64,000 nt of DNA from assembly GCA_041661765.1 (NCBI GenBank), contig JBAZTV010000001.1, forward strand, positions 71,755 to 135,754, given 5' to 3'. A program made the translations under genes and the position numbers. Under the pieces are notes generated by a model. That model was not told the DNA's origin. It searched no databases and saw nothing but the letters and a program-made list of their open reading frames with translations. Every line of letters begins with the position of its first letter. Within the stretch, counting starts at the first letter, position 1. Positions 1 to 59,492 of this stretch are shown here, piece after piece. The DNA comes from Candidatus Shapirobacteria bacterium (lineage in GTDB: Bacteria > Patescibacteriota > Microgenomatia > UBA12405).

Positions 1-834
1 TGTCGCCGGACTATAACCAATCGCTACAAACAACCCATCCAATGGCAATATTCTTTCTTCATTGGCCTTATTATTCAAAACACTAACCGACTCTAATTTT
101 TCCTGGTTTTGCCCTTCTTTTTCAAGGGAGGGTGCCCACGCCACTGCGGGGATGGGCGGGTTTATATCCTTTACTTCTGAATTCCATAAAATCTCTATTT
201 TTTCATTTTCCAATACCTTTTTTTGTTCCGCCGCACTAGCTCTAAATTCTTCTTTTCTAACAATCATAAAAACTTTTTTAGTAAATTTCGCCAAAAATAC
301 AGCATCTTCACAAGCTGTATCTCCACCTCCCACCACTGCCACTGTTTTATCTCTAAAAAACATTCCATCACAAGTAGCACAACTACTTATTCCATATCCA
401 ATTAATTCTTTCTCTTTTGGCAGACCTAACCATTTTACTCCCGCTCCGGTAGCCACAATCACAGTTTTGCTTTGTAAAACCTCTCCACTTTCCAACTCTA
501 AAAAAAAGTCGCCCCTATCAAGGGGAGATGTCGATTCATCGACAGAGGGGTTTGTTCTTTGAATTTGACGAACAATTCCAGATTTAATCTCTACCCCCAA
601 TTTTTTTACCTGAGTTTGAGTATCCATCATCAATTTAAAACCACCAACTCCATCTGGAAATCCCGGATAATTTTCTACCATTGGAGTGATTGTCAATTGA
701 CCCCCCGGTTGATTTCCAGCAATCACAATCGTTTTAATATCCGCTCTCGCATGATAAATTGCTGCTGTTAACCCGGCTGGTCCTGAACCGATAACTACAC
801 AATCATATTTTATATTTTCATTCATACCCATCAT
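1..834 (-). CDS. trxB: Thioredoxin-disulfide reductase (partial; C-terminus runs off the window start)
   Basis: Manual minus-strand translation gives MMGMNENIKYDCVVIGSGPAGLTAAIYHARADIK..., the CATCDG redox-active site and a second GGGDTACEDA NAD(P)-binding motif. No stop codon before position 1. Two repeat-element copies lie in-frame inside it. Confidence 0.85.
   Translation of the reverse strand, partial: MMGMNENIKYDCVVIGSGPAGLTAAIYHARADIKTIVIAGNQPGGQLTITPMVENYPGFPDGVGGFKLMMDTQTQVKKLGVEIKSGIVRQIQRTNPSVDESTSPLDRGDFFLELESGEVLQSKTVIVATGAGVKWLGLPKEKELIGYGISSCATCDGMFFRDKTVAVVGGGDTACEDAVFLAKFTKKVFMIVRKEEFRASAAEQKKVLENEKIEILWNSEVKDINPPIPAVAWAPSLEKEGQNQEKLESVSVLNNKANEERILPLDGLFVAIGYSPAT
111..163 (+). 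repeat. Double-hairpin element copy 1 (degenerate), in-frame inside trxB
   Basis: gcccttctttttcaagggaggg...gggcgggttt. Encodes NPPIPAVAWAPSLEKEG in TrxB. Confidence 0.6.
511..553 (+). repeat. Double-hairpin element copy 2, in-frame inside trxB
   Basis: gcccctatcaaggggag + atgtcgattcatcgacag + aggggttt. Encodes NPSVDESTSPLDRG. Confidence 0.75.
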
Positions 835-883
835 TCTATCAAAAGAGCTTTACTTTTTTAATTTTTTAATTAATACTTAAATA

Positions 884-1804
884 ATGTCCAAGAAAACTCA
901 CCAAGTTGTAAAATTAATTTTTGATCTCATTCAAAATAAACACAATTTTATTTTTTGGGTAGGAATTCGTTTTCTTTCTACTTTCTTACCCTTAGTCACT
1001 ATTTATTTGTTTTCAAAAACCATTAATTTGGTTGAAATTAAATCAGATTTTTCCGCCATCTTTTTTTCCATTCTAATTATTTTTACTGTCAGAATTTTTG
1101 ATAACTTTGTTCGCATTAAATCTGTAACCAAATTAGATGAGTGTATTAGTGATATTAATTTTGATATTCATAACTATTTTATTAAAGATATTAAAAACGA
1201 AACCAAATTAGAAAGACATGAAAGCATTCAAACCATTCGTAATTTTGCCGATGCTACTGCTTGGACTTTAAGGCTTTTTCGCCAACCAGGAATTGATAGT
1301 TTTGTTTCCCTATTTACCATTCCTTTTATTATCCTTTTTGTAGATTTTAAAGTTTTTATTTTAGAAATTGTCTATATTACCGTCTATTATTTCATCGACC
1401 ACTACACCACTCAACGCTACATTAATTTTAAAGATATCCAAAATACTAAAATTGAAAGTTATTATGCCAAACTTCATGAAACTAACGATGTTGATCTTGA
1501 ACAAAAAACTTTTAGTCGTAATTTTGCTCGCCTTTGTAATTGGTGTTTCACTGAATGGTTCACTCTCCAAAACACCGCCGTTTTCTTTTACACTCTAATC
1601 TTTGCTTATTTAATAATTTCTGTTTCCAGTGGTACAAAATTAATTTCAGATTTAGTTTTAATTATGAGCTATATCGCCTCAACTCAAGTTTATTTAAATT
1701 CCTTTTCTGAAATTAAAGATAGTCTCGCTGATATGTCTGTTTCGGTTGACCACATTGCTAAAAATAAATCCATCACCGCCATCGACTTCGACGATTTAGT
1801 ATAA
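884..1804 (+). CDS. Hypothetical polytopic membrane protein (possibly ABC-exporter transmembrane-domain-like)
   Basis: 306-aa ORF with about 6 hydrophobic segments. No recognisable catalytic motif. Confidence 0.4.
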   Translation: MSKKTHQVVKLIFDLIQNKHNFIFWVGIRFLSTFLPLVTIYLFSKTINLVEIKSDFSAIFFSILIIFTVRIFDNFVRIKSVTKLDECISDINFDIHNYFIKDIKNETKLERHESIQTIRNFADATAWTLRLFRQPGIDSFVSLFTIPFIILFVDFKVFILEIVYITVYYFIDHYTTQRYINFKDIQNTKIESYYAKLHETNDVDLEQKTFSRNFARLCNWCFTEWFTLQNTAVFFYTLIFAYLIISVSSGTKLISDLVLIMSYIASTQVYLNSFSEIKDSLADMSVSVDHIAKNKSITAIDFDDLV

Positions 1805-1810
1805 TAAATT

Positions 1811-2686
1811 ATGCCAGAACTTCCCGAAGTTGAAGTTGTCCGTCTTTTTCTCAACCAACATCTAATTAATAAAACCATTTCTAATTTAGAAATTCTTACT
1901 CCAAAATCTTTTATTGGCGATCCCAAATTAGTTCAAGGCCAAAAAATAATTAAAACTTCTCGCATTGGCAAACAACTTTCTCTTCACTTAGAAAATAATT
2001 TAATTCTTCTTTTTCATCTCAAAATGACCGGCCAATTGATTTTTTATCCTCCCTTGTCAAGGGGAGGTCCCGAAAGGGGAGGGGTTTCGCTTGGTCATCC
2101 CACTCCCAAAGAAGATAAATCAATCTTACCCAACAAATCAACTCGTCTCGTTTTCACTTTTTCTAATGGTTCGAAATTATTTTTTAACGATCAGCGCAAA
2201 TTTGGCTGGGTCAAGCTTTTTAATCAGGATGAACTTGCCGAAGCCCAAAAAAATCTCGGTCTCGACATTTTAAGCCCAAACTTCACTCCTGAATATTTTT
2301 ACCAGCAAATCCAAAATACTTCCCGTCCAATCAAAATAGTTTTACTCGACCAAACCAAATTTGCTGGCATTGGTAATATTTATGCCAACGATTCTCTTTT
2401 TTTGACTAAAATTAATCCACAAACACCCTCAAATAAAATTAACTTTAAAAAAGCTTCACTTCTACACCATTTTCTAATTCAAATTATGACTGAGTCAATT
2501 AAAGCTGGTGGCTCCACTGCCAAAGATAATAAATACATCCACCCCGACGGTTCCAGTGGTCAGCACCAATTTAATTTTCAAGTTTACCAACGAGCCGGCG
2601 AACCTTGTTTAGTTTGTCAAACCCCAATTAAGCGAATCACTCTCGGTGGTCGTGGTACCTTCTATTGCCCCAATTGTCAGAGATAA
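1811..2686 (+). CDS. mutM: Formamidopyrimidine-DNA glycosylase (Fpg/MutM)
   Basis: N-terminal MPELPEVE with catalytic Pro2/Glu3, and a C-terminal zinc finger CLVCQTPI...YCPNCQ. Carries an in-frame repeat-element insertion (PPLSRGGPERGGVS) in a loop. Confidence 0.9.
   Translation: MPELPEVEVVRLFLNQHLINKTISNLEILTPKSFIGDPKLVQGQKIIKTSRIGKQLSLHLENNLILLFHLKMTGQLIFYPPLSRGGPERGGVSLGHPTPKEDKSILPNKSTRLVFTFSNGSKLFFNDQRKFGWVKLFNQDELAEAQKNLGLDILSPNFTPEYFYQQIQNTSRPIKIVLLDQTKFAGIGNIYANDSLFLTKINPQTPSNKINFKKASLLHHFLIQIMTESIKAGGSTAKDNKYIHPDGSSGQHQFNFQVYQRAGEPCLVCQTPIKRITLGGRGTFYCPNCQR
2048..2088 (+). repeat. Double-hairpin element copy 3, in-frame inside mutM
   Basis: cctcccttgtcaaggggagg + tcccgaaagggga + ggggtttc. 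Confidence 0.8.
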
Positions 2687-2926
2687 TTTCATTTTTATTT
2701 TTATTAAAAAAAACGATCCATTTTTAACAGATTACAAATCCTATAATATTGACAAATAAACATTTTTTGTTAAAATCTCCCCATTAATTCAATTTCTCTA
2801 ATTAATACAAGCATTAATTAACAAGATTTGTTTAATAGTGTACTTTAAAATTTGTGTGACCTTCTATAAAAATCCAAGAGTTTTTAACTCTTTTATATAA
2901 AAAAACAATTCAATATTAAGAAAGGT

Positions 2927-3664
2927 GTGATTTTGTTGAACGGCAAAAAACCTATATACAAACCTTCTTTTTTTAAGCGATGGGAAAAAACTTGTTTTCA
3001 ATCATCTGAGATTATTATTCCGATTGTGTTAAAAATTCTCGGAAATATATCTTCGGTGGTAGACATGGGGTGTGGAACAGGGCCTTGGCTTTCAGTCTTT
3101 AATAGTTACGGAATAACTGATTTCACAGGTATTGACGGTGACTATGTTAATGAAGATGCGTTAGTTATTACTAAAGAACATTTCAAAGCATATGATCTTA
3201 ATAAACCTCTTGATCTTAGAAGAACTTTTGACTTAGTAGTTTCTTTGGAAGTTGCAGAACATCTCTATCCGCAAAACAGTGAGACTTTTGTAAAAACTTT
3301 AATAAAACATGGGTCAATTATTCTCTTTTCTGCTGCTATACCTTTTCAAGGTGGAACCCATCATTTTAATGAACAATATCAGGATTATTGGTCTGAGATT
3401 TTTAAAAAAAACGGTTACTTTGCAATTGATTGCATTAGACCAAAAATTTGGGACAATAAATCTGTTTACTGGTGGTACAGACAAAATATTATCCTATATA
3501 TTAAAAAGGAAACTATCGAAAATAACGATACATTAAAAGAACTTTACAAGGAGACAAATTCCTTATTAAATCGTGTTCATCCACAAAATTATTTAACTAG
3601 GATTTGTCAAACAATCAAATTTTCACCAGTTCTGGAGTTTGTAAAATTTTTTATCAGCAGATAG
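2927..3664 (+). CDS. Class I SAM-dependent methyltransferase
   Basis: Motif I VVDMGCGTGPW. GTG start preceded by an AAAGG ribosome-binding site. 245 aa. Confidence 0.65.
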   Translation: MILLNGKKPIYKPSFFKRWEKTCFQSSEIIIPIVLKILGNISSVVDMGCGTGPWLSVFNSYGITDFTGIDGDYVNEDALVITKEHFKAYDLNKPLDLRRTFDLVVSLEVAEHLYPQNSETFVKTLIKHGSIILFSAAIPFQGGTHHFNEQYQDYWSEIFKKNGYFAIDCIRPKIWDNKSVYWWYRQNIILYIKKETIENNDTLKELYKETNSLLNRVHPQNYLTRICQTIKFSPVLEFVKFFISR

Positions 3665-3689
3665 AAATAGAAGATCAACAAATTAAACT

Positions 3690-3730
3690 AAGCCGTAGGG
3701 TTAACTTTTAACACCTTACGGCTTTTTCTT
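3690..3730 (+). terminator. Rho-independent terminator downstream of the methyltransferase gene
   Basis: Stem AGCCGTAGGG ... CCTTACGGCT with a 14-nt loop, followed by TTTTTCTT. Confidence 0.6.
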
Positions 3731-3751
3731 GTTATTTTTTTATTTTAATTC

Positions 3752-3780
3752 TTGACAACCTTTCTATATCGGACTAAAAT
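3752..3780 (+). promoter_or_regulatory. Sigma70-like promoter for the iscRS-iscU operon
   Basis: TTGACA (3752-3757), a 17-nt spacer, then TAAAAT (3775-3780). Sits 9 nt upstream of the ATG at 3789. Confidence 0.5.
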
Positions 3781-3788
3781 AGTCCAGT

Positions 3789-5318
3789 ATGAATTTATCA
3801 ACTAAATCTCGCTATGGACTTCGCGCTCTGACCAATCTTCTTGATCAAGACTGTTGTTGTTCCATCAAACAGATTTCCAAAAAAGAACATATTTCTTCCG
3901 ATTATTTAGAAAAAATTTTTGCCAAATTAAAAAAAGCCGGTCTCTTGAAAGTTGAAAGGGGAGCTTGTGGTGGCTACTCTCTCAGTCGTGACCCCAAAAA
4001 AATTACCCTAGGCGAAGTCATTAATGCTCTCGAAAAACCAGAATTCATTTGTCCTGATTTTTGTGATTGTCAAAGCAAATCAGTTTGGCAAAAAATTCAA
4101 TCTGGATTCAGTCATGTTTTAAATTCTATTACTCTCGATCAATTAGCTGTTTCCAAAAATAAATCAGTTTATCTTGACTATGCCGCTTCCACTCCTGTCG
4201 ACCCCGAAGTTTTAAATACCATGCTTCCTTATTTTGATTTTTCTTTTTGTGGCAACACCATGTCTCTCCATCAAATGGGAAGTGTCGCTTCCCAAGTTGT
4301 CGAATCTTGTCGTCAATCCTTTGCTAATATTTTAAAAGTTCAGTCATCTGAAATTATTTTTACTGGCTCGGCCACCGAAAGTAATAATACTGTTTTAAAA
4401 GGGATTGCTTTTGCCAACAAAAATAAAGGTAAACACATTATTATTTCTTCAATTGAACATGATTGTGTCTTAAACAGTGCTAAATGGTTAGAAACTCAAG
4501 GTTTTGAAATCAGTCAAATTTCTGTCGATAAATTTGGTCTCTTAAATTTAGATGAGCTTAAAAAAACCATTCGCCCCGACACCATTTTGGTCTCTATTAT
4601 TCATGGCAATAATGAAATAGGCACAATTCAAGATCTCGCCAGCATCGGCCAAATTTGTCATGATCGCGGAGTTTATTTTCACACCGACGCTTCTCAAAGT
4701 TTTACTAAAACCGACATTGATTTATCTAAGTTAAACGTCGATCTCTTAACCGCTTCTTCTCATAAAATTTACGGTCCAAAAGGCGCAGCTCTTCTTTATA
4801 TTAAAACTGGTACCAAAATTACCCCGCTTCTTCATGGTGGCGGTCATGAATTTGGTCTCCGTTCCTCGACTGTTAATCTACCTGCCGTTGTTGGTTTTAC
4901 TAAAGCCGCCGAAATTGCCATTAAAAATTTTGATCAAGAAAATAAAAAGTTATGTGAACTTCGCGATTATTTAATTAAAAATATTTTAAAATCAATTTCC
5001 GATTCTCATCTCAATGGTCACCCCACTAAACGTCTTTCCAATAATATTAATATTTCTTTTACTCGAGTCGAAGGAGAGTCCCTTCTTTTAGAATTAGATT
5101 TTTATGGCATCGCTGTCTCTACTGGTTCCGCTTGCTCTTCGGCCTCTCTGGAACTCAGCCACGTTCTTTTGGCTATTGGTCTTAAACCTGAACAATCACA
5201 TGGTTCCCTACGTTTTAGTCTTGGTCGTTTTACCACTAAATCCGAAGTGGATTACCTGTTAAAAGTTTTACCTCAAGTTGTTAATAAATTTAGGCAAATT
5301 TCGCCATTTAAATCATAA
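3789..5318 (+). CDS. iscS: Fusion protein: N-terminal Rrf2/IscR-type transcriptional regulator domain plus cysteine desulfurase (IscS/NifS)
   Basis: Residues 1-130 carry the Rrf2 signature (TKSRYGLRAL...GGYSL) and three clustered Cys (CPDFCDC). The remainder carries the PLP-lysine motif SSHKIYGPKGAALLY and the C-terminal GSACSS...LRFSLGRFTT typical of IscS. One continuous 509-aa ORF. Confidence 0.8.
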   Translation: MNLSTKSRYGLRALTNLLDQDCCCSIKQISKKEHISSDYLEKIFAKLKKAGLLKVERGACGGYSLSRDPKKITLGEVINALEKPEFICPDFCDCQSKSVWQKIQSGFSHVLNSITLDQLAVSKNKSVYLDYAASTPVDPEVLNTMLPYFDFSFCGNTMSLHQMGSVASQVVESCRQSFANILKVQSSEIIFTGSATESNNTVLKGIAFANKNKGKHIIISSIEHDCVLNSAKWLETQGFEISQISVDKFGLLNLDELKKTIRPDTILVSIIHGNNEIGTIQDLASIGQICHDRGVYFHTDASQSFTKTDIDLSKLNVDLLTASSHKIYGPKGAALLYIKTGTKITPLLHGGGHEFGLRSSTVNLPAVVGFTKAAEIAIKNFDQENKKLCELRDYLIKNILKSISDSHLNGHPTKRLSNNINISFTRVEGESLLLELDFYGIAVSTGSACSSASLELSHVLLAIGLKPEQSHGSLRFSLGRFTTKSEVDYLLKVLPQVVNKFRQISPFKS

Positions 5319-5320
5319 TT

Positions 5321-5773
5321 ATGTATACCCAAAAAGTTCTCGAACACTTCAGAAATCCTCACAATTTTGGTTCCATGGAAAACCCCACCGCTGTCGGTCA
5401 AGTTGGAAATCTTGCCTGTGGTGATGTCATGAAACTTTATTTAAAAATCGATAAAAACAAAAAAGGGGAAGATTACATTCAAGACATTAAATTTGAAACT
5501 CTTGGTTGTGCTGCTGCCATTGCCACCAGCAGTATTGTCACCGATTTAGCCAAAAATAAAACTTTAACCGAAGCCTTAAAGATAAAAAACGAAGATATTA
5601 TTAAAGCTCTCGACGATTTACCTGCCGTCAAAATTCATTGTTCTTTATTAGCCGCTGATGCTTTAGACGAAGCAATTTATGAGTTTTATCAAAAAACCAA
5701 TCAACCCATCTCTCCTGAGTTAGAAAAGCTTCATCACCGCATCACCGTTTGTCAAACTCGTTTAAACCATTAA
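5321..5773 (+). CDS. iscU: Fe-S cluster assembly scaffold IscU/NifU-like
   Basis: GNLACGDVMKLYL, FETLGCAAAIATSS and HCS motifs, giving the three conserved Cys of the scaffold. Immediately follows iscS. Confidence 0.85.
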   Translation: MYTQKVLEHFRNPHNFGSMENPTAVGQVGNLACGDVMKLYLKIDKNKKGEDYIQDIKFETLGCAAAIATSSIVTDLAKNKTLTEALKIKNEDIIKALDDLPAVKIHCSLLAADALDEAIYEFYQKTNQPISPELEKLHHRITVCQTRLNH

Positions 5774-5791
5774 ATATTGATAAAATAAATT

Positions 5792-6250
5792 ATGTTTTTA
5801 GTCAAAACCGTTTATGCTCAATGTCCTGTCTGCATCGTCACTGTTGGTGGGGGAATGTTTTTAGCCCAAAAACTAGGCGTCGATGATTTTTTGGTTTCTC
5901 TTTGGATTTCTGGACTCAATACTGCCATTTCTTTTTGGTTGGCCCCCAAAATTAAAAATCGAATTTTAGGTAGCCCAATTATTTTTTCTTTATTAATGTT
6001 TGGTTTTACTCTTTTTTATTTTATTTCTACTGGTCAAACAGGTTATTCTACTAATAAGATTCTTGGTTTAGATAAAATTATTTTTGGCCAAAGCTTAGGT
6101 CTTTTAATTATGTTTTTGGGTATTTTTATTGATCGTCATTCCCGTAAATTAAATGGTGGTAAAATTCTTTTTCCTTACCAAAAAGTCGTCTTTCCTGTCG
6201 GCACTTTAATCATTTTTACTTTACTTTTTAAATTATTATTTAAATTATAA
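5792..6250 (+). CDS. Hypothetical small membrane protein
   Basis: 152 aa with 3-4 hydrophobic helices. Co-directional with the isc genes. Confidence 0.4.
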   Translation: MFLVKTVYAQCPVCIVTVGGGMFLAQKLGVDDFLVSLWISGLNTAISFWLAPKIKNRILGSPIIFSLLMFGFTLFYFISTGQTGYSTNKILGLDKIIFGQSLGLLIMFLGIFIDRHSRKLNGGKILFPYQKVVFPVGTLIIFTLLFKLLFKL

Positions 6251-6255
6251 ATTAA

Positions 6256-6305
6256 ACTCTCTTTTTTTTAAAGGGAGATACCCCGCTTCGCGGGACGGAG
6301 GGTTT
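6256..6305 (+). repeat. Double-hairpin element copy 4, intergenic; its 3' GGAGGGTTTT abuts the ATG at 6307
   Basis: ...aagggagat + accccgcttcgcggga + cggagggtttt ATG. Confidence 0.6.
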
Positions 6306-6306
6306 T

Positions 6307-6852
6307 ATGAACAACAAAGAAATCGAAAAATTCATTAATAAAACTAAAGAATTAGAAAAAGGTCATCAATTAGATCTTTCTTCTGGAGAAGATTTATCAA
6401 TTGCCATCATGAATCTTATCGGTATTGAAGAACACATGTTTTTTACTTCCCAAAAATTGGACGACATTAAATATCTCAATATTCTAAATTCAGCCAGGGA
6501 AATGAGAAAAGAATTAATGAAAAAAATCGTCAAAGAAGGTCATGGTGAAGTTTGGTGTACTAGTAAACATCTTTTATCTGCCTCCATGCGTCTCATGGAA
6601 GTTGGCACAAAAAGTTTAACCAAAGGTGACCAAAAAGAAGCCAATGATTATTTCAAAAAATCTTTTGATTTATATAATCTTTTTTGGGGTTTAAATTTAG
6701 GTTTAATAGATTCCTCTATGGAAACACACCATGGCGCGTCTCTACTTCCTAAAAAAAACATACCTGTCAAAGAAAAACCCATTCCTCAAAAAAGCCTAAT
6801 GGGAACTATTAGCCAAACTATCGGTAAGATTCTTGATTGTTGTCGTGAATAA
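6307..6852 (+). CDS. Hypothetical protein
   Basis: 181-aa ORF. The upstream repeat element supplies GGAGGG 6 nt before the ATG. Confidence 0.4.
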   Translation: MNNKEIEKFINKTKELEKGHQLDLSSGEDLSIAIMNLIGIEEHMFFTSQKLDDIKYLNILNSAREMRKELMKKIVKEGHGEVWCTSKHLLSASMRLMEVGTKSLTKGDQKEANDYFKKSFDLYNLFWGLNLGLIDSSMETHHGASLLPKKNIPVKEKPIPQKSLMGTISQTIGKILDCCRE

Positions 6853-7251
6853 CTAATCTCTAAAGATCAATAATATTCCCACAAAAACAAAAGTAATTGG
6901 CCAAAACATATCCCAGTCAATCATTTTTGGAAATATTTGATTCCATAAAGCTGTTAATCCTACTAAGATTAATACTACGCCTAGAATATTAATTCTCTTT
7001 CCTTTTATTTTTTTATCCTGCCTTGCAGAAATTTCTTTTGTCATTGATTTCTCTTTTTCCTTTTCAGTTTCTTTTGGAATCACTAACCATAAAATTAAAT
7101 AAATCAAAAGTCCACTTCCACCACCAATTGCCAATAAAATAAAAATAATTCTAACCAATGATCCGTCAATTTGAAAATACTCAGCCAATCCACCGCAAAC
7201 ACCAGCAATTATATTATTATCGACTGATCTAAATAATTTTTTTGTCTCCAT
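6853..7251 (-). CDS. PspC-domain membrane protein
   Basis: N-terminal IIAGVCGGLAEYFQIDGSLVRIIFILLAI matches the PspC domain. A TM helix and a second TM follow. Confidence 0.7.
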   Translation of the reverse strand: METKKLFRSVDNNIIAGVCGGLAEYFQIDGSLVRIIFILLAIGGGSGLLIYLILWLVIPKETEKEKEKSMTKEISARQDKKIKGKRINILGVVLILVGLTALWNQIFPKMIDWDMFWPITFVFVGILLIFRD

Positions 7252-7253
7252 TA

Positions 7254-7907
7254 TTAGATTCTAGCAATTTCTCTAATCTTTTCAATATTCTTAATCACCA
7301 TCGTTCTTTTTTTATTATAAAGATATCCTTGTTTTTGAAATTTCAAAATTTGTAAAGTTACAGTTTCTCGAGTCAATCCAGCCATACTAGCCAAAACCCG
7401 GTGTGGAGTATTGAATTTAATTACAATTTCATTACCTTTTTTTTCACCCACATCTTTAGCAATCAAGCAGATCAATCCCGCCACTTTACTTTCTGCATCT
7501 CCTGCCACAATTTGTCGCCAACTAATAGATAAATCAAGTAGTTCATCTATTAATTTTTTATTAACCTCACGTAATATGTTTTCGTCTTTCTCAATAAATT
7601 TTACAAACTCATTCATTGGCACTGCCCAAAGTTCCACCGCTGTTATTGCCTCGACAAAATATCTATTTGGTTTTTTATGAAGCCCATTTATTCCAGCACA
7701 AAAAAACAATGGTCTTAAATTCGGAAGACTTGTTTCCTTCTCACCATTAACCACATAAGCTCTTAAAAACCCGCTTTTTTCTATATAAGCCGTATTTAAA
7801 TTCTCTCCCGATCTAAACAAAACTTGTCCCTTTTTATATTTAATTACATCAAACTGGCTAAAAAATGACTCTAACTGTTTCCTAATTTTATCGTTCATAA
7901 AGTACAA
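7254..7907 (-). CDS. Crp/Fnr-family transcriptional regulator
   Basis: cNMP-binding beta-roll region plus a C-terminal HTH (RETVTLQILKFQKQGYL). 217 aa. Confidence 0.7.
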   Translation of the reverse strand: MYFMNDKIRKQLESFFSQFDVIKYKKGQVLFRSGENLNTAYIEKSGFLRAYVVNGEKETSLPNLRPLFFCAGINGLHKKPNRYFVEAITAVELWAVPMNEFVKFIEKDENILREVNKKLIDELLDLSISWRQIVAGDAESKVAGLICLIAKDVGEKKGNEIVIKFNTPHRVLASMAGLTRETVTLQILKFQKQGYLYNKKRTMVIKNIEKIREIARI

Positions 7908-8037
7908 AACTATTAATTATTAAAAAATTATTAAATTTTTATTAAAAGATAATAAAATTTATTATATCACTAAGTTTTTCTAATATTTCTTACTAATTTT
8001 TAATAATTTTTTAATAATTAAGTTATAATATGAGCCT

Positions 8038-8652
8038 GTGGTTAAAAAAATGGAATTTCTTAATCCAAATTTGGATTTAAATATACCTCTAAAGTCAGAT
8101 AGTGTTACCCCAATTCTTGAGGCTGCTAATCAATTAAAGGAAAAAATAGATCAAGCCGAAAAAAGAGCTAAGAAAGCAGAAGAAGAAAATGTTGTAGATT
8201 CTTTAACTGGTTGTTATAATCGAAATTTTTTTGAAAAATTTAAACAAGAAAACTTTGATCCCAATCGTGATAATAATAAAATTGGTTTAGTTTTTGTTGA
8301 TGTTAATAATTTAAAAACTGTTAACGATAATCAAGGCCATGAAGCTGGTGATAATTTAATTAAAAATACTGCTAATTTTTTGAAATCAAATTCCAGAAAA
8401 GAGGATTTAGTTGTTCGTATTGGCGGCGATGAATTTATAATTATTTGTCGTAACCATGATAACACTCCTAATTTTGAAGAAAAAATCCTCAATAGAATAA
8501 AAGAGAGATTAATTGACAATCCAAACAAAGATCTTGCTTTTGGTGTTGCTGTTTACAATAAAGAACAAGATTTTTCTAACCTAGATAAAACTAAAGATCG
8601 TGCCGACACTCACATGTATCAAAACAAAAGAGATATGAAGGCTGAAATGTAA
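8038..8652 (+). CDS. GGDEF-domain diguanylate cyclase
   Basis: LTGCYNRNFF, FVDVNNLKTVNDNQGHEAGD and RIGGDEF motifs. Stand-alone, without a sensor domain. Confidence 0.85.
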   Translation: MVKKMEFLNPNLDLNIPLKSDSVTPILEAANQLKEKIDQAEKRAKKAEEENVVDSLTGCYNRNFFEKFKQENFDPNRDNNKIGLVFVDVNNLKTVNDNQGHEAGDNLIKNTANFLKSNSRKEDLVVRIGGDEFIIICRNHDNTPNFEEKILNRIKERLIDNPNKDLAFGVAVYNKEQDFSNLDKTKDRADTHMYQNKRDMKAEM

Positions 8653-8685
8653 CTTTTCACTAACACTTGAGTTTATAATACTATT

Positions 8686-10437
8686 ATGAATCTCTCAAAA
8701 AGAGCTCATTTTATTATTTTTTTATTTTTTTTAATTTTAACTTGGATATCTTTTGGAATCGAAAAAATCCAAGCTAATGAAAAATATGCCACCATTGTCA
8801 ATCCAGTCAGGAGTCGAGAATTATGGGTCGATAAAACTATTAAGCCTATAGATGACCAATATCAAACAATAAATAATCTAAAACTAAAAGCCACTTGGTT
8901 AATTCAAGACGATGTAATTAATGATCAAGAACTCATCAAAAAAATTAAAGAATTTAATCAAGACCAAGAATTAGGTTTATTTTTAGAAGTTAGTCAAAAT
9001 TTAACCAAAAAAGCTCGAGTTTATTATCCCACCCAAACAGTCTGGTACAGCCCCAAAGCTGTTTTTTTATCAGCCTACAGTCTCAATGATAGAAAAAAAA
9101 TAATTGATCAAATGGTCGCTGATTTTAAAAACACTTTTGGATTTTTACCAAAATCGGCCGGAGCTTGGTGGATTGATAGTTGGTCACAGCAATATTTAGA
9201 AAAAAAATATCACATCACCACTGTCATGATTGTTGCCGACCAAAAAACTACCGATAAATACGGAGTTTGGGGGCAGTGGTGGGGTTACCCATATCATCCT
9301 TCACCTGATAATATTTTAGTGCCAGGAAACTCAAAAACAGTAGTTATTCAATGGGCCCAAAGAGATTTAGAAAAAGCCTATAGTGGCAGTGGTCCTTTAG
9401 TCTCAAATTTTTCACTTCAAGCCAACGATTACACCAGCCAAGGATTAGACCTTAATTATTTTAAAGATTTAGTCAACCAATATTTATCAGTCGAAAAATT
9501 AGGTCAAATTACTGTCGGTTTAGAAACAGGCATGGAAAGTATCGGACATGAAGAAGAATATGCAAAACAATTAACCTGGATTGCTAACAATCAGGTTATT
9601 AGTTTAAAAATGAGTGAGTTTGGCGACAAATATCGCTCCGTTTATGAAAATAAAAATCCCAAAAAAATAATTTTAAGTAATTGGATATTAACGCCGGAAT
9701 ATCGGGAAAATCAAAACCTAGGCGAAAAAACCAATTACAATCCCAATCTAAGTTTTAGTGATAAATTTATTGCCGATCAATCAGAATTTTTAAACCGAGT
9801 TTTATCAGAAACAAACAACAGAAAAGAAATTAAATATTGGCCAATATTTTTAATTATCATCCCTCTTCTATGGCTATGGAGTAAAAACATAGGCTTAATT
9901 TTTTGGCTTTTATTATTATATTTACCTATTTTTAGATCATATTATGATTCGGGTTGGAAAATATTTTTTGGTACCACTATCGAAAATTTAATTTTAGTAC
10001 AGTTGTCAATATTACTTATTGGTGGATTTTTAATCACCAAAATTAATAAAAAATTTAAAATTGATTGGAGTGCTTGGTGGTCGGTATGGATAGTAAATTT
10101 ATTAATTTTTACTGCCAGATACTCAGTTATTGATGGTCAACGTCATCTTGGTTGGCTAGTCGATAATTTTAGATTTATTGGTATCACTTTTGGTCAGGGT
10201 GTTAAATTTTTAAACCAAGATTTAATAGGATACGTAGCCGCTACTATGTTGAAATTTAATCCAGGTTGGATTTGGAATAATTGGTGGGTTTGGATGATTT
10301 TTTATCCTATTATTGAAATTGGATTAGTCTTTTTAATTAGCAAATTAATCCCCAAAAAACTTAGATATTTTATGGCCATATTATCAATATTTTTTATAAT
10401 TTATATTTTTGGTTTAGATCCAATAACTGTAAAATAA
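8686..10437 (+). CDS. Large membrane protein: N-terminal TM, a Trp-rich extracytoplasmic domain of about 370 aa, and a C-terminal polytopic region
   Basis: 583-aa ORF. Hydrophobicity pattern only; no catalytic motifs recognised. Confidence 0.45.
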   Translation: MNLSKRAHFIIFLFFLILTWISFGIEKIQANEKYATIVNPVRSRELWVDKTIKPIDDQYQTINNLKLKATWLIQDDVINDQELIKKIKEFNQDQELGLFLEVSQNLTKKARVYYPTQTVWYSPKAVFLSAYSLNDRKKIIDQMVADFKNTFGFLPKSAGAWWIDSWSQQYLEKKYHITTVMIVADQKTTDKYGVWGQWWGYPYHPSPDNILVPGNSKTVVIQWAQRDLEKAYSGSGPLVSNFSLQANDYTSQGLDLNYFKDLVNQYLSVEKLGQITVGLETGMESIGHEEEYAKQLTWIANNQVISLKMSEFGDKYRSVYENKNPKKIILSNWILTPEYRENQNLGEKTNYNPNLSFSDKFIADQSEFLNRVLSETNNRKEIKYWPIFLIIIPLLWLWSKNIGLIFWLLLLYLPIFRSYYDSGWKIFFGTTIENLILVQLSILLIGGFLITKINKKFKIDWSAWWSVWIVNLLIFTARYSVIDGQRHLGWLVDNFRFIGITFGQGVKFLNQDLIGYVAATMLKFNPGWIWNNWWVWMIFYPIIEIGLVFLISKLIPKKLRYFMAILSIFFIIYIFGLDPITVK

Positions 10438-10443
10438 AATTTT

Positions 10444-10992
10444 TTATTTTTCTTTAAATTTTCCCTCAAATCTCTCCACCAAAGAATAACAACAACCACA
10501 AAATATTTGCTTGTAAAAACCTTTAGTTTCTAATTTTTTACAAATATTTTGTGGCACCAAAAATTCAATTCCTACTTTTTCTCCAATTTCTTTTCCAATC
10601 TTTTCAATCATTTCCGAATTTTGATATTCGCTGGTCAACAGTGTCGAACTAAAAGCCTCAAATCCATTTTTTTTAGCAAACTCCGCTGTCCTTTCCAGCC
10701 TCAACCTCCAACATCTCTCACATCTTTTAGGTTTTAAAAAGTCCCTCTTGTCAAAGAGGGATTTAGGGAGATTGGTTTCAAACCATTCTCTTGGTCTCCA
10801 ATCCGCCACTATCATTTTCAAATCACCAATCATCAATTGCATTGCCTTTAACCTCGATTGATATTCCGATCTTGGGTGAATGTTCGGATTGTAATAATAA
10901 ACTACAATTTCACTAAATCTTTTTTCCAACTTAATTGATTCCACTATTTTTAATAAACAATCAGCACAGCAAGCATGTATTAACAATTTCAT
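10444..10992 (-). CDS. queH: Epoxyqueuosine reductase QueH (DUF208)
   Basis: N-terminal LLIHACCADC, YYYNPNIHPRSEY, and C-terminal Cys pairs (CERCW, CGCC). Carries an in-frame repeat-element insertion. Confidence 0.6.
   Translation of the reverse strand: MKLLIHACCADCLLKIVESIKLEKRFSEIVVYYYNPNIHPRSEYQSRLKAMQLMIGDLKMIVADWRPREWFETNLPKSLFDKRDFLKPKRCERCWRLRLERTAEFAKKNGFEAFSSTLLTSEYQNSEMIEKIGKEIGEKVGIEFLVPQNICKKLETKGFYKQIFCGCCYSLVERFEGKFKEK
10741..10780 (+). repeat. Double-hairpin element copy 5, in-frame inside queH (minus-strand gene)
   Basis: gtccctcttgtcaaagaggga + tttagggagattggtttc. Confidence 0.65.
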
Positions 10993-11015
10993 AAAATATT
11001 TTAAATTTAAAATTA

Positions 11016-11058
11016 AACCCTCCCTGTCAAGGGAGGGTGCCCGCAGGGCGGGTGGGTT
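11016..11058 (+). repeat. Double-hairpin element copy 6, intergenic, directly abutting the tyrS stop codon
   Basis: aaaccctccctgtcaagggaggg + tgcccgcagggcggg + tgggtttt. Confidence 0.8.
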
Positions 11059-12234
11059 TTATTTCCCCAAAAACTCTTTCATTTTTTCCAAACTCCCTTT
11101 CACTTTTGGTTCTTCAAAATGTTTCCTGGCCGGTTCCAATTTTTCAATCAACCAATCCGCTAATCCATTTTTCAAATCCAATGGATATAATTTTTCATTT
11201 TTATAATCCTCAATTAATTCATCCACTTTAGTGTAGACAATATCTCCACCAAATTTTTCTGGTCGGCTGATTTTAAAATTACCTGTTTTTTCTCCCCAAA
11301 ACACCAAAGTTTGCACCCAATTAATTAATGGATTAAATTCAATTTCTTTTGGTGGTCCGTAAGCTTTTTTAATCTTATTTCTAATTTCATCTGGCGTGTC
11401 ATGAATAAAAATCGCACTATTGGGTTTTGATTTGCTCATTTTCAAAGATTCTTCCAACAAAATTTTATCTCCACTTTCTGTAGTCAAATTTTTACCATCT
11501 TCTGTCAATAAACCAAAACCTTCATTTGAATTTTCCGGTCCAGTTAATCCCGCAATCAAATTTTGATGAATTGCCACTGGGGCAATAATTTCCCCTTTAC
11601 TATTTTTTAATGGATTAATGGTCAATTTTTTAGCCACATCTCTGGCAATTACATGAGCTTTTCTTTGATCCATTCCCGCATGAGCCAAATTAACCTGCAT
11701 CGTAAAAATATCTGCCACCTGGAGTGGGGGGTAAAACAAAGTTGCCATATCCACATCGTTACCTTCCTTTTTGCCCATTATCGAAATTGATCTTAAATTT
11801 CTCGACAAAGTCACATGTTTACCCACTTCCATAAAAGTTTCCCAGTGAACAAAATTTTTCTCATACAAATCTTTACCAGTCACAAATTCTACTTGATTTT
11901 CATTCACCCCATAACACTTTAAAGAGGCGATTAACCCTTCTTTAAAATAATGTTCGGTTGCCCAGCGGATATTTTCCCAATTTCCGCCCAATTTATTATT
12001 TAAATAAGAATGAAAATCAGCTAAAAATATTTTACATTTAACTCCTGCTTTTAAAAAATCAGCAATCTTTCCCATTGAAATCAAGCCAGTTCCCAAATGT
12101 ACCATTCCTGATATTTCAAACCCAATATAATGATTTAATACAGTTCCGTTTTCTAGTAATTTTTTCAAATCGTCTTCAGTTAATACTTCCTGACAATTAC
12201 GGGTGATTAATTTAATTTTTTCATTTATCTCCAT
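11059..12234 (-). CDS. tyrS: Tyrosyl-tRNA synthetase, archaeal/eukaryotic type
   Basis: YIGFEISGMVHLG (HIGH region), KMSKS, and C-terminal RPEKFGGD...LEPARK. Closely parallels archaeal TyrRS, e.g. M. jannaschii. Confidence 0.85.
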   Translation of the reverse strand: MEINEKIKLITRNCQEVLTEDDLKKLLENGTVLNHYIGFEISGMVHLGTGLISMGKIADFLKAGVKCKIFLADFHSYLNNKLGGNWENIRWATEHYFKEGLIASLKCYGVNENQVEFVTGKDLYEKNFVHWETFMEVGKHVTLSRNLRSISIMGKKEGNDVDMATLFYPPLQVADIFTMQVNLAHAGMDQRKAHVIARDVAKKLTINPLKNSKGEIIAPVAIHQNLIAGLTGPENSNEGFGLLTEDGKNLTTESGDKILLEESLKMSKSKPNSAIFIHDTPDEIRNKIKKAYGPPKEIEFNPLINWVQTLVFWGEKTGNFKISRPEKFGGDIVYTKVDELIEDYKNEKLYPLDLKNGLADWLIEKLEPARKHFEEPKVKGSLEKMKEFLGK

Positions 12235-12293
12235 AACTTAGAGTATAAAGCTAATTTTTAGAATTTACCATAGATTAGTGGCGTATAATTACT

Positions 12294-13364
12294 TTGATGA
12301 AAAAAATAATTTTATTTTTAGTTATTTTCTTTTCTTGTTTTTTTTCTTTATCTAAAAATACCTTTGCTATTGATCTTTATTATCGAGCTCAAGTCATCAA
12401 AATTACCAATACTGGGTCTGGTCAAAATCTCGATTTAAAAATTAATGATTCTAAGATTTCAGATAACACTATAGTCACTATTACCAATAATTTTTCTTTA
12501 GATGAAGGCCAAACCACTTTTAGTAATCAAAACAATTATCAAATCGACGATTGGCTTTATTTAAGTCAAGGCATTGACCCCTTATCTGGCCAAACCAGTT
12601 ATCAAATTGCTGATTATGATCGCAGCTCAGCTATTTTTTTGCTTTTTATGATTTTTATTATTGCCGTCCTACTTATTAGTTCGTGGCATGGGCTTCGTTC
12701 TCTTTTGTCAATGGCATTATCCTTTTTAGTTATTTTCTTTTTTATCCTACCCAATATTTATCATGGTTCCAATCCAATTTTAATTGTATCTCTAGGCATA
12801 ATTTTTATTATTCCAATTACTTTTTACCTCTCTCATGGTCTAAATAAAAAAACTACTGCCGCTATTATCGGTACCATTATTAGTCTTTTTATTGCCATTG
12901 CATTATCCTTAATTTTTATTAAATTTGCCAAGTTAACTGGTACTACCAGTGAAGAATCTGGTTTTTTACTTTCCTTAAAACCCGGTTTTTTTGATTTTAA
13001 ATCTATTTTATTATCAGGAATTATTATAGGTGTTCTTGGTGTCATTGATGATATTACTATTTCTCAATCAGCCGTTGTTTCTCAATTAAGAATTGCCAAT
13101 CCAAAAAACAAAAAAATATTTTCTCAGGCCATGGCTATTGGTAAAGATCATATTTCCTCCATGATCAACACACTGGTTTTAGTTTATGCCGGGGCTTCAT
13201 TACCTCTTTTACTTCTTTTTGTTGATAATCAATTACCTCTCGGTCAATTAATCAGTTTTGAACCGATTGCTGAAGAAATCATTCGCACTCTCATTGGTAG
13301 TGTTGCTCTTATTATCGCTGTTCCTATCACTACTTTTATTGCCACCAAATTAATCAAAAACTAA
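12294..13364 (+). CDS. YibE/F-like polytopic membrane protein (tentative)
   Basis: Signal/TM segment, an extracytoplasmic domain of about 100 aa, then 6-7 TM helices. 356 aa. Confidence 0.35.
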   Translation: MMKKIILFLVIFFSCFFSLSKNTFAIDLYYRAQVIKITNTGSGQNLDLKINDSKISDNTIVTITNNFSLDEGQTTFSNQNNYQIDDWLYLSQGIDPLSGQTSYQIADYDRSSAIFLLFMIFIIAVLLISSWHGLRSLLSMALSFLVIFFFILPNIYHGSNPILIVSLGIIFIIPITFYLSHGLNKKTTAAIIGTIISLFIAIALSLIFIKFAKLTGTTSEESGFLLSLKPGFFDFKSILLSGIIIGVLGVIDDITISQSAVVSQLRIANPKNKKIFSQAMAIGKDHISSMINTLVLVYAGASLPLLLLFVDNQLPLGQLISFEPIAEEIIRTLIGSVALIIAVPITTFIATKLIKN

Positions 13365-13802: not shown

Positions 13803-13809
13803 TTATACA

Positions 13810-14472: not shown

Positions 14473-14488
14473 TAGTTCTATTTTACTC

Positions 14489-49985: not shown

Positions 49986-50477
49986 TTATATCTTAATTTT
50001 ATCAATAATTAGGCTTGTCGATTGATGTGGAATTGATTTACTTACCTCTAATACTTTTGCCCCAACCTCATTAGCTTGTTTCATTTTTTTTTCCAAATTA
50101 TTATCATTTTCACTAACAGCAATTATTTCTGGTTTTAATTTTTTAATTATTTCTAAATATTCCTCATCGTTTTTCATTTCTGGTAATTTAATTACATAAT
50201 CTACCATTTTCAATTTAGTCAAAAAAACAGCCCTATTTTCTTGATTGTTTATCGGTCTATTTTGTCCTTTATTTTTTTTAATATTTTCATCCGATTCTAA
50301 AAGTACTATTAATATATCTCCCTTTGCTTTTGCTTTTTCCAAAAAAATCAAATGACCCAAATGAACAATATCAAAACACCCCCCAACCAATACAATCTTT
50401 AAAGCCGCCCTGTCAAGGGAGGTGATTTCGATTTTATCGAAATCGGAGGGTTTTTTCATATTAATTATATTTTTCAT
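49986..50477 (-). CDS. Cytidylyltransferase-like nucleotidyltransferase (TagD/RibL/NMNAT-like)
   Basis: GGCFDIVHLGH ((H/T)xGH Rossmann nucleotidyltransferase motif). The N-terminal 20 codons are encoded by a repeat element. Confidence 0.6.
   Translation of the reverse strand: MKNIINMKKPSDFDKIEITSLDRAALKIVLVGGCFDIVHLGHLIFLEKAKAKGDILIVLLESDENIKKNKGQNRPINNQENRAVFLTKLKMVDYVIKLPEMKNDEEYLEIIKKLKPEIIAVSENDNNLEKKMKQANEVGAKVLEVSKSIPHQSTSLIIDKIKI
50404..50454 (+). repeat. Double-hairpin element copy 8, encodes the N-terminal 20 aa of the nucleotidyltransferase ORF
   Basis: gccgccctgtcaagggagg + tgatttcgattttatcgaaatcgga + gggtttttt. Confidence 0.75.
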
Positions 50478-52687: not shown

Positions 52688-52710
52688 AATTAAATGTTTA
52701 AAATAAATCG

Positions 52711-52757
52711 CCCTGTCAAGGGAGATGTCCTCCGAAATTTCGGAGGACAGAGGGTTT
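52711..52757 (+). repeat. Double-hairpin element copy 9, between the response-regulator and histidine-kinase genes
   Basis: gccctgtcaagggag + atgtcctccgaaatttcggaggacag + agggttt. Confidence 0.75.
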
Positions 52758-57180: not shown

Positions 57181-57657
57181 ATGAAAAACCTAAAACAAAT
57201 GTTTCCCATTTCCACTATTATTATTTCTTTAATTGCTCTCTCCATTGGTTTTACTGGCGGTTTTATTTATCAAAAAAGTAAAACACCATCTTTTGCTCGA
57301 AATGGTCAATTTCAAATGGCTGGCGGTAATAATTCCAACCGGATTGGCAATAAAGGTAGTACTGGTAACCAAATGGTTGGCCAAGGTCAAAGATCTTTTG
57401 CTAAAGAAACTATCGGTGAAATTACCAGTGTTGATTCCTCATCTATTACTGTCAAAACTAACGATGGCAGTTCTAAAATTATTATGATTTCTGATTCCAC
57501 CACTGTTAATCAAGCAACTAAAGTTGATAAAAACAGTCTTAAAGTTGGTTCCCAAATTTCAATTTCTGGTGATCAAAACACTGATGGTACTGTCACTGGC
57601 AAAATCATTAATATTAATTCTGCCACTACTACTATCACTCCTGTGACTAAAAATTAA
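57181..57657 (+). CDS. Secreted hypothetical protein (DUF5666-like beta-domain)
   Basis: Signal/TM segment. GEITSVDSSSITVKTNDGSSKII...GDQNTDGTVTGKIININ. Confidence 0.4.
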   Translation: MKNLKQMFPISTIIISLIALSIGFTGGFIYQKSKTPSFARNGQFQMAGGNNSNRIGNKGSTGNQMVGQGQRSFAKETIGEITSVDSSSITVKTNDGSSKIIMISDSTTVNQATKVDKNSLKVGSQISISGDQNTDGTVTGKIININSATTTITPVTKN

Positions 57658-57674: not shown

Positions 57675-57700
57675 ATTAATTTAAAACCCTCCAAATTTCG
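57675..57700 (+). repeat. Half-element / terminator hairpin (AAAACCCTCC-aaatttc-GGAGGGTTTT)
   Basis: Perfect 6-bp stem CCCTCC/GGAGGG (6-nt loop aaattt plus one unpaired C) flanked by A4 and T4. Same second-hairpin motif as copy 9. Probable bidirectional terminator. Confidence 0.6.
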
Positions 57701-57750
57701 GAGGGTTTTAACTCAGCCGTTAATTTGGTAAGATTAAAAACTGTTTTTAT

Positions 57751-59169: not shown

Positions 59170-59242
59170 ATAAACTTTACATATACGTAAAATTCGTCTA
59201 ATATTAATTTGTTAGTTATTTTACAAAGGGAGGTGTATTTTA

Positions 59243-59443
59243 ATGAAAAAAAGTCCTTTATATGTTTTTTGTCTCATTCTTATCATCGTCGGTGGACTCA
59301 ATTGGGGTTTAATTGGTCTTTTTAATTATGATCTTGTCGCCATGATTTTTGGAAATATGTCCTTTTTATCTCGACTAGTTTATGACCTCGTCGGTTTATC
59401 AGCGGTTTATATTCTATTTTTTCTTTTTAGCGACAAAAAATAA
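59243..59443 (+). CDS. DUF378-family small membrane protein
   Basis: GGLNWGLIGLFNYDLV motif. 66 aa. Strong ribosome-binding site AAGGGAGG 8 nt upstream. Confidence 0.65.
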   Translation: MKKSPLYVFCLILIIVGGLNWGLIGLFNYDLVAMIFGNMSFLSRLVYDLVGLSAVYILFFLFSDKK

Positions 59444-59450
59444 AAAAAAC

Positions 59451-59492
59451 TCCCCCGGTCCCTCCTTGTCCAAGGAGGGACTTAGGGTTGAT
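59451..59492 (+). repeat. Double-hairpin element copy 11 between convergent genes (DUF378 and patatin)
   Basis: tcccccggtccctccttgtccaaggaggga + cttagggttgatttt. Confidence 0.7.

Follow-up and report, generated by a model that had tools for sequence, protein, structure and literature searches.

In a 64,000-nucleotide stretch of contig JBAZTV010000001.1 from a Candidatus Shapirobacteria bacterium, a member of the candidate phyla radiation (CPR), we found a family of short, G+C-rich repeats in which a pyrimidine arm (Y), a purine arm (R) and a G-rich third arm (H) follow one another on one strand. This stretch, at its full length, is called the window below. The family is probably a repeat dispersed at the DNA level, and the feature under selection would be a class II purine-motif triplex formed by a single strand, of the kind known from the BoxC/PIT/TMECO elements. 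What is distinctive here is a mini-hairpin nested in the second loop, frequent in-frame residence within genes, and a strong orientation bias.

Three-arm anatomy and the mirror rule

The window (31.6% G+C) was searched with scans for G+C-rich islands, perfect hairpins, fuzzy motifs and patterns. The pattern and hairpin scans recovered 11 short G+C-rich elements between positions 112 and 59490, all 11 on the plus strand (Table 1). The pattern CCCTCC-N5-9-GGAGGG had four exact matches against an expectation of 0.00. A three-arm scanner, which requires 7-nt arms with at least five G and at most one mismatch per arm, found six clusters on the plus strand and two on the minus strand, against 0.02 per window in shuffled sequence; the two minus-strand clusters overlap c7 and c11, and relaxing the rule to four G also recovered c4, c5 and c9. 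Ten of the 11 copies thus form one non-random family, all on the plus strand, and six of these ten (c1, c2, c3, c5, c7 and c8) lie inside genes. The remaining copy, c10, is a 12-bp hairpin (TTAAAACCCTCC-aaatttc-GGAGGGTTTTAA) that carries the CCCTCC/GGAGGG words and looks like a bidirectional terminator; because it has no third arm, we place it outside the family. A preliminary description of this DNA, made from the sequence alone, had proposed a dispersed family of eleven copies at 111-59492. The family was recovered far above chance, with ten copies as members and c10 set aside.

Read from 5' to 3', an element consists of Y, a loop, R, loop 2, H and TT(T). Y and R form a Watson-Crick hairpin (hairpin 1), and H is the mirror image of R, with G opposite G and A or T opposite A. 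All ten members keep the Y-R-H order on the plus strand with at most one mismatch per arm, except c1, which has three mismatches (one in the third arm and two in the pyrimidine arm); c6, with tgtcaa as loop 1, has none. Five copies have asymmetric R and H arms (c2, c3, c5, c8 and c9; for example, AGAGGGA/AGGGAGA in c5), and all five obey the mirror rule and violate the direct-repeat rule. This observation ruled out a switch-like structure in which the tail would pair alternatively with the 5' arm: the asymmetric tails mirror R instead of repeating it, and a mirror arm is unable to pair with Y, so that the tail has no alternative helix partner. As judged from its base order, the H arm has what an antiparallel third strand of the purine motif requires (G·G:C, A·A:T, T·A:T).

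Watson-Crick folding of the elements as single-stranded DNA by a nearest-neighbor method, which has no triplex model, gave two hairpins (z-scores of -1.5 to -5.2) and left the H arm unpaired in every copy. Loop 2 is 10-23 nt long in eight of the ten window copies and 3 nt only in c5 and c11. The preliminary description, which had defined the elements by a double hairpin, a TGTCAAG loop and a GGGTTT tail, held in part. Two hairpins are present in most copies and the loop sequence is seen, but the CTT-AAG portion of that loop is stem, c5 and c11 lack a second hairpin, and the "tail" is the third arm that mirrors R.

The mirror rule holds well beyond the window. A metagenome scan with one subtype of the element returned at least 119 loci (733 kb, 35% G+C), called related DNA below, and all counts from it refer to the matches listed. 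In the related DNA we counted 247 non-overlapping three-arm elements, whose arm sequences are of many kinds. Leaving out the seed copies, we took the 206 perfect hairpins whose purine 3' arm is asymmetric and searched up to 52 nt downstream for a third arm. A perfect mirror arm was found downstream of 66 of the 206, compared with 8 for a direct repeat downstream, 2 for a mirror arm upstream and 5 for a direct repeat upstream. R, Y and H show three-way covariation across different arm sequences, and this is comparative evidence of selection on the triplex geometry itself.

Loop 2 is diverse in sequence and conserved in form. It is at least 10 nt long in 201 of 245 copies in the related DNA, with 178 distinct sequences among the 245, and its usual layout is TG-stem-loop-stem-C. 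A perfect stem of at least 4 bp occurs in 160 of the 201 longer loops, against 19 of 201 after shuffling, and compensatory changes preserve the pairing of this second hairpin. The triloops are mostly of the GNA type (68 of 93); triloops of the C-GNA-G form make up a class of DNA mini-hairpins with unusual stability.

Some copies in other genomes closely resemble those of the window. Near-identical copies of c6 and c7 (…GGGAGGGtgccctcagggcGGGTGGGtttt) occur in a 32% G+C metagenome-assembled genome (MAG) labelled Gammaproteobacteria, which is possibly a mis-binned CPR contig, and also in a Parcubacteria MAG. The same layout, with its TG-hairpin-C form of loop 2, was seen in MAGs of Clostridia (Oscillospiraceae, Gallimonas). 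The loci behind these near-identical and Clostridia copies are L030 1465-1504, L120 1576-1615, L029, L048 and L095.

Table 1. Coordinates and arms of the elements in the window, read on the plus strand
Copy	Positions	Strand	Context	Peptide	Y	R	Loop 2	H and tail
c1	112-163	+	degenerate triplex-motif element; antisense within trxB (site 2)	NPPIPAVAWAPSLEKEGQNQ	CCCTTCTT	AAGGGAGGG	hairpin	GGGCGGGTT
c2	509-553	+	antisense within trxB (site 1)	TNPSVDESTSPLDR	TCGCCCC	GGGGAGA	TGTCGATTCATCGAC	AGAGGGG + TTT
c3	2048-2087	+	sense within mutM	PPLSRGGPERGG	CCTCCCT	GGGGAGG	TCCCGAAAGG	GGAGGGG + TTT
c4	6257-6306	+	intergenic, between the stop of open reading frame (ORF) 5792..6250 and ATG 6307		CTCTCTT	AAGGGAG	hairpin CCCGC-ttc-GCGGG	GAGGGTT
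c5	10742-10773	+	short-loop, without second hairpin; antisense within queH	NLPKSLFDKR	TCCCTCT	AGAGGGA	TTT	AGGGAGA
c6	11018-11060	+	intergenic, queH / tRNA-synt_1b gene		CCCTCCC	GGGAGGG	TGCCCGCAGGGC (TG-CCCGC-agg-GCGGG layout)	GGGTGGG + TTTT
c7	14263-14306	+	antisense, linker of CAP-domain gene	NPPVLRTPSLEKGG	CCCTCCC	GGGAGGG	TGTCCGTAGGAC	GGGTGGG + TTTT
c8	50405-50457	+	antisense, N-terminal extension of cytidylyltransferase-like gene	KPSDFDKIEITSLDRA	CCGCCCT	AGGGAGG	9-bp hairpin	GGAGGGT
c9	52708-52757	+	intergenic, response-regulator / histidine-kinase genes		TCGCCCT	AGGGAGA	10-bp hairpin	AGAGGGT
c10	57681-57711	+	plain hairpin AAAACCCTCC/GGAGGGTTTT, just 3' of ORF 57181..57657
c11	59459-59490	+	short-loop; intergenic, convergent genes either side; H-like arm on opposite side too		TCCCTCC	GGAGGGA	CTT	AGGGTTG (1 mismatch)

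The opposite-strand three-arm matches at c7 (14243-14283) and c11 (59448-59479) resemble the "palindromic" TMECO copies of E. coli. The extra minus-strand arm of c7 overlaps conserved Trp-Gly-Val codons of the CAP gene, and this match may be fortuitous.

Copies inside genes

The six in-gene copies, in trxB (two copies), mutM, queH, a CAP-domain gene and a cytidylyltransferase-like gene, all keep the reading frame, as the preliminary description had stated. In every in-gene copy examined, the frame was kept and no stop codon was present. The trxB gene is encoded on the minus strand, runs past the start of the window and holds c1 and c2. Judged by the orthologs of TrxB and DnaN, the organism belongs to Candidatus Shapirobacteria, within the CPR/Patescibacteria. 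The 120 TrxB orthologs range from 304 to 374 residues in length and carry inserts at two sites, site 1 being filled in 21 and site 2 in 32. The occupants differ (PPALRAPSLEKGGQ, PSVDKSTSPLD, PSVPTKVGTPSLEKGG and others), with the same type of peptide at both sites. On a TrxB tree built from core columns, the filled state is patchy; sisters that are ~95% identical differ in state, and arm types vary at each site.

Codon alignments of filled and empty alleles gave net insertions of 45 nt at site 1, 51 or 42 nt at site 2 and 36 nt in mutM. Relative to their orthologs, the window genes have gained 15 and 17 codons at the two TrxB sites and 12 codons in MutM, compared with the 13-20 added residues proposed previously. 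That range holds for TrxB and is slightly too high for MutM, and it fails for the CAP gene, in which c7 occupies a variable linker preceding the CAP domain; the one ortholog found has an unrelated A+T-rich sequence of equal length at this position, and the net length change is zero. Three variants of the element occupy one site of QueH in three relatives. Copy c8 lies within the first 29 residues of its protein; the cytidylyltransferase domain begins at residue 30, and there is no in-frame start codon after c8.

The AlphaFold model of TrxB has a mean predicted local distance difference test (pLDDT) score of 83.6, with scores under 50 confined to residues 1-5, 100-106 and 227-242. The latter two segments correspond to the inserts of c2 and c1, respectively, and each is flanked by β-strands in the model. 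Gaps in alignments with solved TrxR and MutM structures coincide with the inserts. The modeled positions are in agreement with the earlier suggestion that the inserts fall in loops.

Because close orthologs lack the element and the same motif is found between genes, the sequence comparisons support the conclusion that the in-gene copies are insertions and not ancestral sequence. Orthologs without the segments had been set beforehand as the test of this point, and both such orthologs and filled and empty sites were found. The conservation of frame suggests that the in-gene copies are translated as surface loops of 12-17 residues, and we infer that selection has left only those insertions that are in frame and structurally harmless. 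Repeat insertion would then be a part of the length variation in CPR housekeeping proteins, and the three-arm layout offers annotators a simple recognition rule. Since the coding frame fixes the borders, the insertion junctions at dozens of filled and empty gene sites are far better readable than those between genes.

Several other length differences were seen in these proteins. A MutM ortholog (L140 2588-3451) contains the element and, six residues downstream of the insert, lacks an eight-residue segment (TPKEDKSI) that the window MutM and the empty alleles possess; there may be local instability beside the element. The TrxB loops of some orthologs (P0025, P0070, P0061, P0052, P0054, P0063 and others) hold other recurrent peptides, namely KIQMTND (at site 1 in one ortholog and at site 2 in another), SNDKFLMS, RCQMSDV and RSQISDVRSQLDVKSQM. 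From their sequences, these peptides may represent a second, A+T-rich family of in-frame repeats. The tRNA-synt_1b gene (Tyr/Trp-tRNA synthetase type; 11059-12234, minus strand) has a segment of ~20 residues, NSNEGFGLLTEDGKNLTTESGDKILL, at residues ~236-262 (31% G+C) that is missing from an 83%-identical ortholog in L142/L246; it contains no triplex element.

Strand asymmetry, borders and competing explanations

Among the 247 elements of the related DNA, 134 are intergenic, 57 lie in ORFs in sense orientation and 56 in ORFs in antisense orientation. Long stop-free stretches make up 86% of the bases, and intergenic copies are thus enriched about four-fold (54% of copies in 14% of the sequence); the other 113 (~46%) lie inside ORFs, in all three frames. 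With the elements masked and one seed taken per locus, the GC skew of the motif strand was negative in 68 of 74 loci (p = 2e-14). The skew is likewise negative along the entire window, where the motif strand is the C-rich strand in 10 of 10 copies. Orientation is therefore independent of transcription and strongly tied to strand composition, and an orientation shared by ~92% of copies relative to GC skew ties the elements to a strand-asymmetric DNA process.

We left the polarity of this process, leading or lagging, unassigned, because the skew does not flip at the dnaA cluster and there is no gene-strand bias: 46% of coding bases lie on the G-rich strand. The tRNA genes lean to the G-rich strand. 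In relatives, an rpmH-rnpA-yidD-yidC-jag / dnaA-dnaN cluster lies ~10 kb upstream of trxB. Two syntenic loci just left of the window, L266 1-21122 and L267 1-21074, have an unusually strong GC skew (-0.16 to -0.5), and in L267 the elements on either side of dnaA share their orientation. The replication origin may lie away from dnaA in these genomes; either it is located elsewhere, or the asymmetry has another cause. Element length modulo 3 did not cleanly separate in-ORF from intergenic copies, since the position of the 5' border varies; the one trend was a weak excess of loop-2 lengths divisible by three.

The borders of the elements carry none of the usual marks of transposition. The information content of the flanks revealed no conserved sequence beyond the arms and TTT, and no conserved 5' tetranucleotide or flank was found beside the hairpin. 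Apart from the arms themselves, filled and empty pairs showed no terminal inverted repeats, and neither the five filled and empty gene sites nor the intergenic pairs had a target-site duplication. A candidate conserved 3' extension (TTTGTTCCTTGG...) was limited to a few copies. At some junctions the empty site and the element ends are alike over 2-6 nt (GTCTCC versus GTCGCC; Asn/Gly codons AAY/GGN), but the pairs were too few to support a target-site rule. No transposase, integrase or HUH (Y1/HUH) domain was found among the ORFs of the window. In viral contigs the specific pattern had no matches, and the 17 matches to a loose pattern were chance-like. The preliminary description, which had noted the absence of a transposase from the window, was correct in that respect; its view of the elements as simple palindromes resembling MITEs (miniature transposable elements with inverted repeats) is at odds with the mirror third arm and with the lack of terminal inverted repeats and target-site duplications. 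Its expectation that there are more than 11 copies was borne out by the metagenome scan.

A clean intergenic insertion is c4, whose 50 nt separate a stop codon from the ATG that follows; in relatives these genes either adjoin directly or have 6-8 nt between them. With its third arm, c4 brings GGAGGG to 5 nt upstream of the ATG of ORF 6307..6852, and the sequence suggests that this insertion may have supplied a Shine-Dalgarno sequence.

In the structure that we consider probable, Y and R would pair as a Watson-Crick hairpin, and H would run antiparallel along R, making G·G, A·A or T·A contacts, to give a purine-motif triplex. In this lineage the second loop would usually close as a very stable GNA-triloop mini-hairpin. 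New copies would come from a strand-specific DNA process that draws on the folded single strand; candidates are a stalled polymerase that switches template and a single-strand enzyme that acts in trans. Because the hallmarks of transposons are absent and the elements are strand-biased, a replication-coupled single-strand mechanism is the most economical guess. Spread by a trans-acting single-strand enzyme is possible, and a cut-and-paste transposase acting on terminal repeats is unlikely.

Two other explanations at the DNA level were weighed. A selfish palindrome like the Rickettsia palindromic elements (RPEs) or MITEs could be moved by a transposase encoded elsewhere (Y1/HUH, IS200/IS605 or RAYT type) that recognizes the hairpins, the mirror arm being incidental. 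Such an element would be dispersed, abundant and patchy in relatives, as observed, and would have a strand bias like that of single-strand transposons; the load, 10 in the 64-kb window and 8, 4, 1 and 0 per 21 kb in relatives, fits an enzyme present in some genomes only. Among the relatives, L142 is rich in the element, and L266 and L262 are poor in it. Recognition by a protein, however, leaves the mirror arm that covaries with R unexplained, and in view of the featureless flanks, the missing target-site duplication, the lack of a candidate enzyme in 64 kb and the lack of matches in viral contigs, we regard this explanation as unlikely. We consider it quite improbable that the elements are a host-beneficial DNA signal, such as a site for replication pausing or priming, a recombination hot spot, a nucleoid-protein site, a bidirectional terminator or a Shine-Dalgarno module. 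A signal would agree with the intergenic enrichment, with the position of GGAGGG in c4 (the spacer is 0-8 nt in relatives), with the nearly identical arms in distant phyla and with the tie of orientation to chromosome strand asymmetry. A signal role is nevertheless hard to see for the nearly half of copies that lie in ORFs, in either orientation and in three frames, and close relatives lack copies at the same sites, one having none in 21 kb. In addition, PIT elements tested in vivo in published work acted neither as promoters nor as terminators and had no effect on replication (PMC4666352).

Readings at the level of RNA or of four-stranded DNA are disfavored. Two hairpins that fold well and compensatory changes that keep hairpin 2 paired might also be expected of a structured RNA, riboswitch or small RNA, or of a segment that is removed or bypassed so that the in-gene copies are untranslated. 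The nearly equal numbers of sense and antisense copies in ORFs, an orientation that follows the skew of the DNA strand rather than the transcript, and the lack of an Rfam match argue for DNA rather than RNA: only a tRNA-Ser reached the gathering score, and positions 1-15000, which include seven copies, matched nothing at E <= 1 or better. RNA reportedly does not form purine-motif triplexes (PMC4666352), and the in-frame, stop-free state of the in-gene copies would be needless if they were removed or bypassed; an RNA element is thus very improbable. The chance that a G-quadruplex or i-motif built from the G-tracts of R and H is the selected feature is slighter still. The type A elements (GGGAGGG ... 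GGGCGGGTGGG) and the Sphingomonas and E. coli versions do contain at least four G3 tracts, but the commonest type in this lineage (GGGGAGA/AGAGGGG; also AGGGAGA/AGAGGGT) has only two G-tracts, with which no intramolecular quadruplex is possible. A quadruplex would require neither the conserved pyrimidine arm nor the mirrored placement of A and T, and it was excluded for TMECO by nuclear magnetic resonance (NMR) (PMC4666352).

Several observations weigh against the triplex repeat as we propose it. With no transposase, no target-site duplication and imprecise borders in the intergenic filled and empty pairs, any copying mechanism is conjectural, and recent movement is not demonstrated because no two window copies are identical. 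The Y/R stem contains a G.A or G.T mismatch in several copies, TCGCCC(C)T being the common form. The triplex fold of these sequences is a prediction, and their arms are shorter than those of TMECO (7 nt against 9 nt); the loop-2 hairpin of 10-25 nt exceeds the 1-6 nt that the published search definition allows for a loop. Across the rpmH-dnaA-dnaN cluster in L266 and L267, skew and element orientation both stay the same, which weakens the link between strand bias and replication. Finally, the method of ortholog collection would miss frameshifted copies, and translation of the in-gene copies rests on frame conservation.

More tentatively, the elements might represent a widespread, transposase-independent form of selfish DNA that is defined by structure. 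A single strand folded into a GNA-capped purine triplex would be what propagates, and it would bring about its own strand-specific copying as the DNA is replicated, for instance when the polymerase switches template at the block that the triplex itself creates. If true, this possibility would explain the near-identical arms found from Proteobacteria to Clostridia to CPR bacteria, and in CPR genomes, which have almost no intergenic space, it would routinely give rise to new surface loops in essential proteins. In the ~30 years since intrastrand triplex repeats (BoxC/PIT/TMECO) became known, neither a function nor a way of spreading has been established for them, and they have been described as strictly intergenic and free of orientation bias.

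Comparison with known systems

The closest known relatives of the window family are the BoxC/PIT/TMECO elements, which have the form 5'-CCCTCNCCC N3-6 GGGNGAGGG N3 GGGNGAGGG (Holder et al. 2015, PMC4666352). A total of 3610 TMECO copies were counted in 262 proteobacterial genomes, and circular dichroism and NMR established that TMECO folds in vitro as a class II intrastrand triplex; the copies in E. coli are always intergenic, show no strand bias, are unlinked to mobile elements and are associated with local genomic instability, and their function is unknown (PMC4666352). The elements described here share with this group the one-strand order of a pyrimidine, a purine and a G-rich third arm (Hoyne and Maher 2000; PMC4666352), a third arm with T or A opposite A, and the character of short (~37 nt), G+C-rich, dispersed multi-copy repeats that vary between strains and have no associated transposase. 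Some TMECO copies are armed on both sides, like c7 and c11.

The differences from TMECO are equally clear. The TMECO consensus has no match in the window; its arms are 9-nt CCCTCNCCC sequences, whereas those here are 7-9 nt and of the CCCTCCC or TCTCCCC types, and its loop 2 is 3 nt, whereas ours is mostly a mini-hairpin of 10-25 nt. TMECO elements are intergenic without strand bias in E. coli MG1655, and here ~46% lie in ORFs and ~92% take one orientation relative to GC skew. The hosts of TMECO are Proteobacteria, and the host here is a CPR bacterium of 31% G+C. Under the PIT/ITxF definitions, our elements have the arm order and a mirror third arm with at most one mismatch, and their loops fall outside the published length limits (1-6 nt for ITxF; 0-10 nt in Hoyne et al.).

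The architecture itself is widespread. Species-representative genomes were scanned for hairpin 1 alone (CCCTCCCTN{2,3}CAAGGGAGGG), a search from which we take distribution and not copy number, and Sphingomonadaceae and other phyla made up most of the matches listed. Among these, the layout Y-loop-R-(linker or hairpin)-GGGTGGGT(T) was present in Sphingomonadaceae, Dehalococcoidia, Paenibacillus, Gastranaerophilales, Geobacter, Gallionella and Clostridia, the Clostridia copies having a loop-2 hairpin, and in Parcubacteria, Gracilibacteria, Uhrbacteria and Shapirobacteria. Because it occurs in many phyla, the architecture is not specific to CPR bacteria or small genomes. A literature search for in-frame palindromic repeats in CPR bacteria returned nothing relevant. 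The preliminary description knew of no TGTCAAG-loop family in small-genome or CPR-like bacteria; the kind is already described, as BoxC/PIT/TMECO, and its architecture has this wide distribution.

The RPEs, reportedly introduced by Ogata and colleagues in 2000, are simple palindromes of ~100-150 bp restricted to Rickettsia, and to our knowledge no triplex-type third arm has been described in them. Like the present elements, they reside in frame in conserved genes of a genome that is small and A+T-rich, are compatible with protein function, are polymorphic and have no transposase of their own, and the TrxB, MutM and QueH comparisons show the same polymorphism of in-frame insertions among relatives. 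The elements here are 30-55 nt long, have an architecture that occurs in many phyla and are strand-biased, differences that set them apart by size and description rather than by comparison with an RPE consensus. The RPE-like mode of genome colonization put forward in the preliminary description thus applies to the outcome, apparently translated in-frame inserts, and not to membership of the same family.

The repetitive extragenic REP/BIME (REPIN)-RAYT systems are essentially extragenic and lack a mirror third arm, and the elements here lack the conserved 5' tetranucleotide. Like these systems and hairpin-ended derivatives of IS200/IS605, the elements here would have a biology that depends on folded single-stranded DNA, and IS200/IS605 insertion is strand-specific with respect to replication. 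Fungal mitochondrial genomes offer a further parallel in the GC clusters of yeast and the double-hairpin elements of Allomyces, the latter reportedly described by Paquin and colleagues in 2000. These clusters are very short and G+C-rich, have one or two hairpins, and lie in A+T-rich genomes, between genes and occasionally in frame in coding sequence, with no transposase; we know of no mirror third arm in them. By description, they differ from the present family in belonging to organelle genomes and resemble it in size, hairpins and scatter.

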